A stretch of 64,000 nucleotides of DNA from the IMG/VR virus record IMGVR_UViG_2737471833_000002. One strand, 5' to 3'. The position numbers were made by a program. Source of the DNA: a virus (Duplodnaviria > Heunggongvirae > Uroviricota > Caudoviricetes). Below, piece after piece: positions 52,692-58,600 of the stretch (the stretch's first letter is position 1; each line of letters opens with the position of its first letter).

Positions 52692-55600
52692 TGATGTTTT
52701 GAAAACGGTCACTGACCGCTTTTGTCTCTATAGTAATGCTCGAAAAGGTCGCCAGAACGGGCGACAGTATGTATTAAGCGCGGTCAAGACCATGCTTGAA
52801 AGCAAGGAAACTCAGGAAGGTTTACGCCTTGGTGAGCTTTTCGGCTATTACGGTCACGGTCGCCGACAGCTGACCGGCAAACTGGAAGTACCAGAAACCA
52901 GCGTGATCATGGTGGAAGGTCGCCCGGTCGTAATCGACAATGTTCCAGCTTGCCGCACAGTGGCTATATCCGTTGACGACAACGGCATCGTTACCCATAC
53001 ACAGGAAATTCTTAACACAGAGCCGGGTAAAATTGTCGCCGCGATGATCGAAAGCCGTGCTGGTGGCTGGAGCTGGGCCACTGGCGGGCGCGAGTCCGGG
53101 AAAATCGCTGTAACCACCAGCTTCCATGGTGTGGATTATGTGACGACGCCGAACTATATCAGTCTGGATCATCCTGCCAGCGCCGGAATGTTTGAAAGCG
53201 CGGATTCTAAATCTTTACTGGCAGAGTCCCTGGCGGCGCATGGGTACTCCGACGAGTCAGTGCAGGCCGTTATATCCCATTACGGCAAAATGGCTGAACT
53301 GGAAATGATGGTGGAGGCGACAGAGCGTACGGCAGAACTGGAAACCGCACTACTCGAAAGCCAGGGCCGCCACCTCGAAGCAATGGCCAAGATCGCAGAT
53401 GCTGAAGCGCGAATCGCTTTGCTGGAGGAAACAGCGGGTATCCGCGACGATGTGCTGGCAGCAATGCAAGACGAACTGGATAACCTCCCGATCTTCGTCT
53501 CCGCCGCCCAAAAAGACGCATTCCGCCTCAAAGAACCTGGTGATGCAAAAATCGTTGCCACACTTTTCGAATCTCTGATCAAAGTTGGAGCACGCAACTT
53601 GCCTGTCACCAAGAAAATTAAGGAGGTTCCGCAAGCGGCTAACATCCAGGCACCGCGTGAGACAAGCATCATCACGTTTAATAATTCAATCAATCCGTTC
53701 AAATAACCACCAAAAATAACCCCGGCGGCTGCCGGGGTTATCGTTAACTATTATCGCTTTCGCCTGCGTGCCATATATTTGCGCACCGCGCGGCGTGGAC
53801 AATCTGAAGCGGTTTCTTTCTGCTGCATCAATCTCGCAGCCATGCTCAAAAATGTCAGGCACAGCCGAAGCCCGGCATACAATAGCGGTTCCAGTGGCCA
53901 CGTCTCATTGAGCACATATACCGCCATGAAAATCGAGTCAAAAACTATCGCCGCCAGCGATAACTTCATTGTCGAAAGTCGGCGGAGCTGCCTGAGTTTA
54001 TTCATTGACCAGCCCCGTCAGGCAAATCTGGCGTTCTTTTTCACGGCGAATCTTTAAACCTCGCAAGGGCACGCCGTTACTGTTCACGAAATCAGGGAGA
54101 TGGTTACACATATTCACCCATTCCCCTTTCTGCGCCCACTTGTGGATGGACGTTTCGACTCGCATGCCTCGCGCTTTGCTGTAGTAGGTCCGTAAACTAT
54201 TGCATCCCATATTGAATGCCGCGCTTGTCATTGCGCTGAAGGCATTATCGGGCATGTCTTTGCCCCGGAAGTGCTGATTAATACAGCGTTCAGCGATCAG
54301 GATATTCTTTTCCCAATCAGCGGCGATTTGCTGGTCGTTTTTTCGAACACCCGGTGTAACTCCGTGGGTATTGCCAATCCCGTCAGTCCACACCCCCGCC
54401 GGGCACATGTATGGATCACGTCGGCAACCTTCAGCGTTTCCGATAAGCTCAAGCCCCGCCTGGTTGGTTCGCACATTGCCATTACCCATCACGATGGTAA
54501 TCATCACCGCGATAGCGCAAATTGCACCGCCTCCTGCGGCTGTTTTTCCCTTCATAAAGACCTCATAAGCGAATTTTTTACGCTCCAGGACAAACACCCA
54601 TTCACAGCCAATACCGACTGACTCGATCCCTTTAGAAGGCACAGGATAATGCAAATCACTTGTTAGCTACGTTTCAAAGATATACATTATTGCTCTAATT
54701 AATTTATTTTATTAGGTAAGATAAGTGGCACAACGCGGTGTAAACAAAGTCATCCTGATTGGTACCCTGGGGCAAGACCCGGAGATCAGGTATATACCAA
54801 ATGGCGGAGCGGTCGGAAGACTCAGCATCGCAACGAATGAATCATGGCGCGACAAGCAAACGGGCCAACAGAAAGAGCAAACAGAATGGCATAAAGTCGT
54901 TTTGTTCGGAAAACTTGCTGAAATTGCGAGTGAGTATTTACGAAAAGGTTCTCAGGTCTACATCGAAGGGAAACTTAAAACCCGTAAGTGGACAGATGAC
55001 GCCGGTGTAGAACGTTACACGACGGAAATTATCGTCAGCCAGGGCGGCACCATGCAAATGATCGGCGCTCGCCGCGACGATTCACAATTCTCAAATGGCT
55101 GGGGGCAGTCAAACCAACCTCAAAACCACCAGCAATACAGCGGTGGCAGTAAACCTCAGAGCAACGCCAATAGCGAACCTCCAATGGACTTTGAAGACGA
55201 TATTCCATTTTGAGAGGGCTGAAAGTTGCTCGATTACTTAAAAATAACTTTACCTAATTGGTGTAAAAAAATGGGCGCAACAAAGCGCCCCAACAATAGA
55301 GTTTCAAATTAATAAAAAGGTAATAAATAACATGAAGTTAAATTGAGAAGAGGCAATTTTATTGCCTCTTCAAAGGTGGCATGAGGGTGCCACCTATATG
55401 CGGGCAGTGACATCACTCCCTTCCCGCATATTCTTACCTACCAAAATTAGAATTGGTAGGTCATACCAACAGCAACGATGTTGTCGGTTGCAACCTCAGA
55501 TCTTTTGGTAAATTCACTTTCATCAATCAGGTTGATCTTGTAGTCAACGAAAGCGGACATATTTTTGTTGAAGTAATAAGTCGCACCCAAGTTGATGTAT

Positions 55601-58600
55601 TCAACCAGATCCTGGCTGCCGAACGCACCAATATTTTCACCGCGAGAGTGCAGATAAGCGATGGACGGACGCAGGCCGAAATCAAACTGGTATTGAGCAA
55701 CAGCTTCAAAGTTTTTCGCCTTGTTCGCGATAAAGTCATCACCGAAGACAGTCATATTCTGAGTTTCAGAATAAGTTGCAGCCAGGTAAATGTTATTTGC
55801 GTCATATTTCAGGCCAGTAGCCCATACTTCAGCAGTTTTACCAGAAGCATTCAGAGGATCCTTTTTAGCATAGGATACCTGCCCATCAGTACGATCAGAT
55901 TTTGCATAGGTTGCACCAACGCCAAATCCTTCATAATCGTAAGTAGCAGACAGACCAAAGCCATCACCATTAGATTCAACTACGTCACGGCCTTTCCAGT
56001 TGTTCACTTTTGCAGCACTATCATTTTTACCTTGATACTGCAAAGCAAAGTTCAGACCATCAACCAGGCCGAAGAAATCATTGTTACGGTAGGTGGCTAC
56101 GCCAGTAGCACGCTGGGTCATAAATACATCGGTCTGAGTCCAGGTATCTCCACCAAACTCAGGCAGCACGTCAGTCCAAGCGCCAATATCATAAGCTACA
56201 CCATAGTTGCGACCATAGTCGATTGAACCATAATCAGCAAAACGGAGGCCAGCAAATGCAAGACGAGTTTGATCTTTATCAGAGCCCTCAGATTCAGTAC
56301 GGTTACCTTTAAATTCGTACTCCCACTGACCAAAACCGGTTAACTGGTCATTAATCTGAGTTTCACCTTTGAATCCCAGACGAGCATAAGTCTTATCTCC
56401 GTCATCACTAGCTGAAGAAGAGAAGTAATGTTCTGCGTTAACTTTGCCGTACAGATCCAGTTTATTACCGTCTTTGTTGTAGATTTCAGCTGCTTGCGCA
56501 GACATTGCCATCAGGACAGATGCTGCAACCGCAGAGAGTGCCACTGTGATTTTTTTCATTTTTTTTGCCCTTTAGATTGAACTTTTCAGTAGAAAAGAAG
56601 TCACTGCGGACAAATGTTTATCTTTTTTGGATTCGTGTTTCAAGTTTTGCAAATAAAAATCAAGGTATTTTTGTGATCAAAATCACAAATAATAGCCTTG
56701 AAAACCCAATGGACTATTAGAAAAAACTCAATTCACAGAATAAAAATTGACAAAATAGATCAAAAAACAATCAAAAATAAGCACAAAAGACAAACAATTA
56801 AATTATCACAAAAATAATAACTGTCAAAAATAGATAGCCTGTTAATTAACAGGGCTTTAATGGATGTAGACTTGAAATCTACTTAAAAATTAGAATCAAA
56901 TTAATTACTGCCGATTGGGTATTAAATTGAATCTATATTGTGAGAGTTAAAGACGATGTGTTTTAGTTATAAATGTTATTCCCTAAAATGGAGCGGTCTC
57001 ATCGAATCCTGATTAATAACGAGCTAAGCTAATTCATTTTAGTATGTGTATATCTTTACCCTCTGAATATGCAATAAAGAAGAGATATTAAACAATATGT
57101 AGCTTCAGGATTGACTCTGGAAGAATTAAAAGATCGACTAAAGTGTTCAATATGTGGTGAGCGAAACGCAAAAATTAATTTTTTTTGATCTAACATATTA
57201 GGTAACGGCTTGCTTCCATAACCTAAAGCAAGCCACTACGCGTTTACTTTAAGTACACAATTAACATATCAGAACAGATTATTTTTGCACAATCAGGGAG
57301 TTAATATACGATCTGGTCTACATGATCACCAAAATCATCATCGTCGTCGTCATCATCGCCACCATCTACTGCTGGCCAATCAACAAACCAGCCAGCGTAA
57401 AGATGCAGCGTTCGGAGAACATCACTTGCGGGAGCATCAAGGGTGTTAACGAATCCCATATAGCTATTGGGATTTGCCCCAGCTATGGCTTCAGCGATCA
57501 TGTCCTCGGTAATGTCACCGGAGATAATGCTTAAACGCCCGGAAACTTCTTCATTATCATCAAATTCGATAATGGCATCTCCGCCTAATGGCGCTGCGAT
57601 TTTAATCTGCATTATTTAGCTCCTTTGCCACACCTAATAACAGTTCCAGCAATCCGTCACCATTCATCAGTGATGCGGCAGCGGCCTCTTTGTCATGATA
57701 CAACTGAAGAGCCATAGAGAATACTTCCGTTGCTGACGTTTTGGAAATAGTCGGTGATTTCTGCCGAATTTTCCCGGTGTTACTTACTGAGGCTGGCGGG
57801 TATACCTTCGCCATATAAATATTACTCAATCGAGATCTGAAGCACCATTCAGGCTTGCCACGCCCACCGATATTAACGAAAGATGGCTTATCCCCTTCAA
57901 CATTGGCCTTCAGGAATGACCGGGCTTTCTCTAACAAACCAGGGTTACTGTACTCAAGATGATGACCCAGCTCGTGCCACAGTGCACTTGCATTTTCATC
58001 GTTCAAATTGACAGCAACAACACCATTAAGATTTGCATATGCCCTTCCCTGGTGGTGAACCACCTTTGATAAGGTCGAAATTTTACCGCCGGTCAGGCGA
58101 TAAATATCAGCAAGTTCCTTGCGCAGGTCTATCCCACCATTCTGTCCAGCGCGGGCTTCTTCCACTTCTTCCGTGATAAAAGAGTCGGCCCACTCAAGAG
58201 CTTTTTCTTCAGATACGGATGAGTTTGCGATCGCACTGTTCATGGCAGATAACACTTTCTCGTGGACCGAACCCATTCTTCGCTGATTCATTTGCCAGCG
58301 TGTCTGCGGGTTATATGAGAATCGCTTAAGTAGTTGGTCAAGCTGCTCAAATTCTTCTTCACTGACATACCTTTTAGCCTCACCAATAATGCCAGGGAGA
58401 ATATTGCCGTTAGGATTAAACGCTCGCGAAAGGAAGAGTTTCAGCGCCCCCATGCCCTCCGATGCTTCAATATCACCAATAACCCGGTTAACAATGGCCG
58501 CACTCTTCGGATTAGCATCCGCCAACGCTCTGGCTACAATTTGCAGGGACGATACGACCTCACGCTGCATATCAGTCCTGATCTCATCAATAAACTCTGG

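Follow-up and report, generated by a model that had tools for sequence, protein, structure and literature searches.

A P7-type porin cassette with an IpeX-family 3′ untranslated region and a predicted antisense seed for host porin mRNAs

Results

The virus record IMGVR_UViG_2737471833_000002 (Caudoviricetes), of which a stretch of 64,000 nucleotides was analysed here and is referred to as the window, carries on its minus strand a porin gene (55447-56559, 370 aa, an allele of P7 nmpC), which is preceded by an AT-rich leader and followed by a structured 3′ untranslated region (UTR). This 3′ UTR (55265-55449) is, judged by sequence and predicted structure, a homologue of the porin-linked RNA IpeX, and it contains a conserved segment predicted to pair with the initiation region of host ompF. 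The porin gene is convergent with ssb (54725-55213 (+), Pfam SSB), which forms the left backbone flank, while hxr (57301-57612), ddrB, ddrA and darA follow on the other side, all on the minus strand. A preliminary description had placed a minus-strand porin between ssb and the darA operon, at the position of IS1 in P1, and this placement holds, the corresponding P1 slot being isaA-IS1-isaB. By sequence comparison, we assign the cargo cassette to about 55214-57079 (~1.9 kb), within variable region RD-2 of a P7-type P1-like plasmid prophage; homology to one chromosomal island (L004) extends to 55223, at most ~10 bp from the stop codon of ssb.

A 2,087-bp region comprising the porin matches phages JL22 and phi456 and about 50 plasmids at 99.9% identity; for P7 (AF503408 / NC_050152), in which the gene is named nmpC and annotated as 'NmpC precursor', the value is 95%. 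P7 shares with the window the slot (ssb / porin / odaA-hxr), the orientation and an identical 3′ element, whereas the porin of the window is an allelic variant with 17 amino acid differences, identical to the JL22/phi456 type. Venturini et al. [quoted passage not shown] The lyz-ssb backbone is found in about 500 PLSDB plasmids, and 99-131 of those (~1/4) contain the porin region. From the P7 annotation and PMC6906374, the porin is already known as cargo of P1-like prophages and is routine knowledge for P1/P7 specialists, so that its earlier treatment as a possible novelty has to be given up. JL22/phi456-type records name the gene variously ompD, ompC or hypothetical, and neither the 3′ RNA nor the CRP site of the P7-type cassette is annotated in any record. 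In annotation and searchable literature, we found no mention of an IpeX-family element, a MicF-identical seed or a perfect CRP site in P7-type elements, and these three features are what is new here.

The porin was assigned from the list of open reading frames (ORFs), Pfam and NCBIfam matches and identity comparisons. Its translation starts with a signal peptide (aa 1-23, 56491-56559), contains the L3 constriction motif PEFGGD and ends in TYQF, and porin residues 29-370 cover profile positions 1-337 of 337 of Pfam Porin_1 (PF00267) with an E-value of 1e-147. The full-length 16-strand domain, together with the signal peptide, the PEFGGD motif and the C-terminal aromatic residue, identifies a general bacterial porin, and solved structures of Omp36, OmpC and OmpK36 can be aligned over its entire length (454 bits to Omp36, 5o9c). 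The gene is therefore complete, as had been proposed, with an intact 370-aa ORF, signal peptide, YQF end and full-length Porin_1 domain. It differs from the P7 coding sequence at 72 of 1,113 positions (6.5%), corresponding to only 17 amino acid differences; since most differences from P7 are synonymous, the gene appears to be under purifying selection and is no decaying pseudogene, a state the preliminary description had named as fatal to its proposal.

Phylogenetic placement relative to OmpC, OmpF, NmpC and Lc, which had been recommended previously, was carried out here. Amino acid identity amounts to 95% with P7 NmpC, 80-82% with lambdoid NmpC/Lc and 74-77% with OmpD of Salmonella and Citrobacter, compared to 60% with K-12 OmpC and 57% with K-12 OmpF, and in a neighbour-joining tree the porin falls inside the NmpC/OmpD group. 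On these comparisons, we classify it as a member of the NmpC/Lc/OmpD clade. The earlier label 'OmpC-like' is thus appropriate at family level, but not at clade level. The porin also passes the NCBIfam model 'porin OmpC' (528 bits; cut-off 484), a subfamily-level model for which a passing score does not show ompC orthology. A housekeeping OmpC orthologue was considered and rejected, given the 60% identity to K-12 OmpC, a leader showing no homology to the upstream region of ompC, and the lack of a MicF match (see below). For porins of this clade, an effect on permeability, as suggested for the prophage porin, is supported by the finding that reactivation of NmpC alters cefotaxime susceptibility (bioRxiv 10.64898/2026.08.19.745717).

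The 3′ element comprises 185 nt from the stop codon (55447-55449) to the terminator T-run and is predicted to fold into three hairpins, H1 (55396-55431), H2 (55374-55395) and H3 (55347-55371), followed by a single-stranded AU-rich region (55292-55346) and an intrinsic terminator with its stem at 55273-55291 and a T-run at 55265-55271, all on the minus strand. The terminator that the preliminary description had noted after the porin was recovered as a hairpin at 55273-55290 with this T-run. Folding of the element gives a minimum free energy of -67.5 kcal/mol (z = -6.7). According to PMC12197685 and PMC5069750, IpeX is an RNA from the 3′ end of the lambdoid nmpC/lc porin transcript that represses OmpC and OmpF, and its processing yields a stable species of about 167 nt (PMC12197685). 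In K-12 DLP12, the nmpC flank from stop codon to terminator measures 165 nt against these published 167 nt (PMC12197685), and BLAST aligns it with the 3′ flank of the window at 70% identity over 175 nt (E 2e-9). Just as in K-12 DLP12, the element of the window begins directly after the stop codon and ends at an intrinsic terminator.

Homology was confirmed by a covariance model (R1) with four robust helices and 39 bp, built from eight lambdoid/DLP12 flanks only and containing no P7-type sequence. A search of the 64-kb window with R1 returned a single match, which starts from the porin stop codon (55292-55449 (-), 72.4 bits, E ~1e-14). When 13 distinct copies were aligned with the structure as guide, 97.2% of cells formed pairs, compared to 39-50% if the partners are slid, and 17 of the 39 pairs are changed on both sides, which was reached by none of 500 shuffles. 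Independent compensatory swaps are additionally found among the P7-type copies (G-C to A-U at pair 81/94) and, in the plasmid copy L171, in the terminator. In phage-derived loci, the element accompanies the porin in all 80 cases. In a set of 80 genome loci, one per species, it occurs at two NmpC-type genes only and at none of the 78 chromosomal OmpD-, OmpC- and OmpF-like genes, which end in a simple terminator. Both the 3′ element (0/185 differences; L001 3052-3236 in P7) and the following 51 nt are identical between window and P7, while the coding sequence differs as stated above; this identity points to strong constraint or, alternatively, to recombination with a breakpoint at the stop codon.

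Taken together, the 3′ UTR is by these sequence and structure comparisons assigned as an IpeX homologue, and the porin gene very probably has a regulatory RNA at its 3′ end. With lambdoid IpeX it shares the three hairpins, the conserved single-stranded UGUUAU(A/U)UAUUACC and the terminator. It differs from it in the bases of the stems, as given by the 17 exchanged pairs, and in a 19-20 nt insertion before the terminator (185 vs 165 nt). IpeX is without an Rfam family, and Rfam gives no match at the K-12 IpeX locus itself. Two known RNAs were rejected as assignments. GcvB (RF00022), whose match extends over the entire 3′ flank, reaches 30.5 bits against a gathering threshold of 42, with 43 model positions including the G/U-rich R1 of GcvB deleted, and no GcvB match was obtained at the homologous K-12 IpeX. 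Membership in the MicF family was dismissed as no MicF match at E<=1 was found across 54600-57700, and a 12-nt seed is all that the two have in common.

Within the AU-rich region, a conserved single-stranded core of 21 nt, AACUUCAUGUUAUUUAUUACC (55319-55339 (-)), constitutes the predicted antisense seed. It contains the 12-mer UUAUUUAUUACC (55319-55330 (-)), which equals nucleotides 17-28 of MicF and is perfectly complementary to ompF from -11 to +1; UUAUAAAUUACC denotes a substituted form of this 12-mer. The core is invariant in four distinct P7-type flank variants (window and P7, which are identical, and the chromosomal copies L004, L005 and L006), while neighbouring stems and loops vary, and it diverges in the plasmid copy L171. 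The predicted duplex between core and ompF comprises 22 bp from -15 to +9, covering ribosome binding site and start codon, with a ΔG of -23.4 kcal/mol, compared to 25 bp from -17 to +10 and -27.4 kcal/mol obtained in the same prediction for the MicF 5′ end. Pairing of the element with ompC is predicted to be weaker (-20.8 kcal/mol), with both targets far in the tail of the background. A genome-wide antisense search was substituted by background windows and 266 initiation regions, since a match of 12-17 nt is unsuited to BLAST. None of 200 shuffled seeds equalled the real seed on ompF, only 0.03% of 18,276 background 40-mers pair as well as ompF, and among the 266 enterobacterial initiation regions, a crude set, none equals K-12 ompF, the top ranks being mainly ompC- and ompF-type. 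Duplex prediction revealed no significant pairing of either the window element or K-12 IpeX with the initiation region of the cassette's own porin mRNA.

Despite the shared 12-nt core and the similar footprint on ompF, the element is not homologous to MicF overall. The MicF seed is located at the primary 5′ end of an RNA divergent from ompC, whereas the seed of the window is internal in a 3′ UTR downstream of a porin, so that the likeness is one of function only, as predicted from pairing. The lambdoid IpeX seed differs by few bases from that of the window, and its best predicted target is ompC rather than ompF: K-12 IpeX pairs best with the ompC leader from -32 to -2 (-26.4 kcal/mol overall). 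Within this duplex, we additionally observed 15 contiguous pairs (14 Watson-Crick and one G-U) between K-12 IpeX (L007, DLP12 3368-3532 (-)) and ompC (L169) from -21 to -7, including the Shine-Dalgarno sequence.

The leader (56560-57300) comprises 741 bp at 29.8% GC, compared with 48% for the whole window, in agreement with the ~740 bp of AT-rich, palindrome-containing DNA reported for it, but 221 bp of the 741 are P1 backbone and not cargo. Its proximal part (56560-56747 (-)), containing the putative promoter and the 5′ UTR, travels with the porin, as it accompanies it in three unrelated IS-rich chromosomal islands (L004-L006) with ~79-83% identity in distant BLAST. It is 97.9% identical to P7, its final 64 nt can be aligned to the leader of DLP12 nmpC, and it contains a conserved GCAGTGAC box. 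The perfect CRP consensus palindrome TGTGATTTTGATCACA (56672-56687) is centred ~120 bp upstream of the ATG and is the sole match in the 64 kb, where 0.07 are expected. In the chromosomal copies L005 and L006, the perfect palindrome is found at the same distance from the ATG with different spacer bases. DLP12 and lambdoid leaders retain the TCACA half-site at a similar position, where P7-type leaders have the perfect palindrome, and the leaders of OmpD of Salmonella and Citrobacter, the sister clade, feature a CRP-like site with the conserved TCACA half farther upstream. A conserved TTGAAA (56638-56643) follows 36 nt downstream of the CRP centre. Taken as the -35 element, which we assume here, it would put the CRP site at ~-71.5 and therefore at a class I position, defined by TGTGA-N6-TCACA at -61.5, -71.5 or similar from the transcription start site.

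The preliminary description had compared the leader with ompC/ompF regulatory regions that could hold OmpR-type sites or a divergent small RNA, and neither proposal found support. Distant BLAST against 5,426 E. coli genomes gave no homology to the ompC or ompF control regions and matched only porin-linked copies and P1 backbone; no formal scan for OmpR boxes was made. Rfam at E<=1 yielded nothing in the leader, including no MicF-like divergent small RNA, and plus-strand small ORFs and candidate transcripts are not conserved. From its sequence, the clearest regulatory signal of the leader is thus taken to be the CRP palindrome rather than OmpR boxes, which were not rigorously scanned. A leader-encoded small protein was also rejected, as a 51-aa plus-strand ORF is broken in P7 and a 39-aa ORF accumulates amino acid changes. 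The latter corresponds to the lysine-rich 'gp17' of JL22 (56698-56817 (+)); its frame is open in P7 with 5 of 39 residues differing, and it is probably an artefact of AT-rich sequence.

The distal part of the leader is an AT-rich spacer of 332 bp (56748-57079, 25-30% GC). It was found in 104 PLSDB records, all of them porin-carrying P1-like plasmids, which fall into three identity bands and in none of which a feature is annotated, and it has no chromosomal match in distant BLAST, so that the searches of plasmids and E. coli genomes place it only beside this porin in P1-like plasmids. Small ORFs in the spacer are not conserved in P7. H-NS binding or insulation from read-through of the darA operon would be guesses at its role. 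The spacer also holds a perfect 16-nt palindrome, CCTGTTAATTAACAGG (56838-56853), which was flagged as terminator-like on the porin strand and could insulate the porin promoter from such read-through or bind a protein. The remaining 57080-57300 is the P1 backbone mentioned above, consisting of a remnant of the isaB 3′ end and the hxr-distal terminator of the darA operon. It is 88% identical to P1 24024-24240, where the P1 record AJ000741 annotates a terminator, and the hairpin (inverted repeat I7) is located at 57202-57239.

Beyond the cassette, lyz (53998-54654 (-)) is located upstream of ssb, and a C1 operator, Op(ssb), lies between them (54689-54705). Matches to the P1 C1 operator consensus ATTGCTCTAATAAATTT with <=3 mismatches number 16 in the window against 0.26 expected (e.g. 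3809-3825, 40304-40320 and 54689-54705) and map the C1 regulon of the element; none of them is located within 55214-57300. On the other side, ddrB (57602-59290 (-)) encodes 562 aa and corresponds to P1 DdrB (995 aa) lacking approximately residues 13-447 in frame, while hxr, ddrA and darA are intact and JL22, P7 and P1 have a full-length ddrB.

Discussion

We consider it likely that the cassette acts as a porin swap, in which a probably CRP-responsive promoter is combined with a porin of the NmpC type and with an IpeX-family 3′ UTR RNA repressing resident OmpF and OmpC, so that the porins of the cell would probably be exchanged instead of one merely being added. In the lysogen, the porin would be transcribed from its own promoter, which is probably activated by CRP-cAMP from the class I position and acts independently of the phage repressor. 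Since the cassette is devoid of a C1 operator, its expression should not depend on the prophage repressor. The transcript would stop at the intrinsic terminator, and the three-hairpin 3′ UTR with its U-tail would be released, or be active as a stable RNA, as described for IpeX. The exposed core would then pair over Shine-Dalgarno sequence and start codon of host ompF in a MicF-like manner and less well with ompC, thereby blocking their translation, while the cassette's own porin mRNA, not being complementary, would be spared. We infer this repression of host porins by the 3′ element from the predicted duplexes. As net effect, OmpF and OmpC would be replaced by the phage porin, with changed antibiotic permeability and loss of receptors used by other phages and colicins as expected consequences. 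P1 itself adsorbs to lipopolysaccharide, and the swap would therefore protect the host rather than exclude P1 superinfection.

Lambdoid prophages provide a precedent for this arrangement, since PMC12197685 and PMC5069750 describe for PA-2 and DLP12 the same logic of a phage porin combined with a repressor of host porins. NmpC of DLP12 (qsr′) and Lc of PA-2 belong to the same porin clade, but are encoded by integrated prophages between Q and the lysis genes, in contrast to the P1-like plasmid prophage of the window.

Several observations weigh against a functional porin swap of this kind. A generic sigma-70 scan found no convincing minus-strand promoter in the leader and fewer matches than in shuffles, so that the promoter assignment is made from comparative conservation alone. 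The AT-rich leader may be silenced by H-NS. The pairing prediction ignores accessibility and Hfq, concerns AU-rich sequences and was compared with mononucleotide shuffles. In addition, the original IpeX paper by Castillo-Keller and colleagues from 2006 reportedly found in simple base pairing no explanation for ompC repression; it is also said to have reported no complementarity, which contrasts with the 15-base match between K-12 IpeX and ompC. Most of the covariation represents one deep split between P7-type and lambdoid copies, in an alignment that was fitted to the model, and the lack of any difference between the 3′ elements of window and P7 could originate from a recombination breakpoint instead of constraint. 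Moreover, PMC12197685 states that complementarity alone does not account for the action of IpeX on ompC, and genes of the nmpC type are frequently quiescent or interrupted by IS elements (PMC3333887; pSvP1 nmpC::IS10, PMC6906374).

The best surviving alternative, which we nevertheless regard as unlikely, is that the 3′ flank serves as a cis-acting mRNA end only, with tandem hairpins that keep 3′ exonucleases off the porin mRNA and stop transcription ahead of the convergent ssb, and has no role in trans. Three stable hairpins directly after the stop codon, the terminator and the convergence of ssb and porin gene are all in line with such a function, as is an antisense match arising in AU-rich sequence. 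However, stability hairpins need no conserved single-stranded segment, yet the 21-nt core remains invariant across the four P7-type variants while stems and loops change, and chromosomal OmpD-type genes, which are without an IpeX-like element, do with a single terminator after the stop codon. The core furthermore ranks ompF and ompC initiation regions above the 266 others and above 99.97% of background windows, and for the homologous lambdoid element, activity in trans on OmpC and OmpF has been published (PMC12197685 and PMC5069750).

Less probable still, at a level we would call remote, is that the cassette constitutes transcriptionally silent baggage, captured by IS-mediated events at a hot spot, kept quiescent by H-NS through its AT-rich leader and conferring no phenotype on the lysogen. 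The leader with 30% GC, the varying cargo of RD-2 (PMC6906374), the quiescence of nmpC in K-12 and B strains and its IS disruption in pSvP1, and the location of related chromosomal copies among IS debris would fit this scenario. Set against it are an ORF that is intact in about 100 plasmids and differs from P7 mostly by synonymous changes, a perfect CRP site maintained at fixed offset in independent lineages with different spacers, and double substitutions in the 3′ RNA that preserve its structure, and these three features together argue for selection for function. It can be considered very improbable that an ompC-like gene under EnvZ/OmpR osmoregulation is present, with OmpR boxes and/or a divergent micF-like small RNA in the leader, since the OmpR half-site-like TGAAACA overlapping the putative -35 element at about 56636-56643 and the score above the NCBIfam OmpC-subfamily cut-off are opposed by a leader without homology to ompC/ompF upstream regions, Rfam matches or conserved plus-strand ORFs and candidate transcripts, by a protein that clusters with NmpC/Lc/OmpD at 60% identity to OmpC, and by the OmpD/Lc group being, as Santiviago and colleagues reportedly stated in 2003, regulated mainly by cAMP-CRP and not by osmolarity.

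Extending the porin-swap interpretation beyond the window, we tentatively suggest, with more doubt than confidence, that NmpC-type porin-swap cassettes are self-contained and mobile units with diversified seeds, whose IpeX-family RNAs act by seed pairing, so that the carrier selects which host porin is replaced. As part of this tentative proposal, the cassettes would move among lambdoid and P1-like plasmid prophages, chromosomal islands rich in IS elements and one or more plasmids carrying F-type transfer genes. Equally tentatively, seeds would have diversified: that of the P7 type, having arrived at the MicF core by convergence or by capture, would be tuned to ompF and that of the lambdoid type to the ompC leader, while L171 features another seed.

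Related copies were observed in further contexts. About 50 E. coli chromosomes contain cassettes of NmpC-type porin and IpeX-like element in different islands (L004, L005 and L006 types). In each of the three types, a remnant of an IS3-family element starts ~250 nt past the stop codon, suggesting that the cassette was mobilised by IS elements. A related porin and a divergent IpeX-like element (51.5 bits) are located directly upstream of a plasmid ssb in L171 (NZ_CP055049.1, 1426-2689 and 2852-3337), a 129-kb plasmid with F-type transfer genes (trbC); seed and terminator sequence of this element are different. The linkage of porin and ssb thus recurs outside P1-like elements.

Conclusion

P1-like plasmids occur commonly in E. 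coli from livestock and from clinical sources, frequently together with extended-spectrum beta-lactamase (ESBL) or mcr genes that they carry. According to our analysis, about one quarter of the P1-like plasmids in PLSDB bring with their porin an unannotated regulatory RNA that is predicted to shut off OmpF and OmpC. With IpeX being without an Rfam family, such elements are missed by standard annotation, and the alignment and model presented here could seed one. The P7-type variant with its long MicF-like duplex offers a clean test of base pairing by IpeX-family RNAs, a point that the literature leaves unclear. If the proposed exchange of porins takes place, the porin set of the lysogen would be altered, and with it permeability to beta-lactams and carbapenems, sensitivity to colicins and susceptibility to OmpC- and OmpF-dependent phages, including therapeutic ones.

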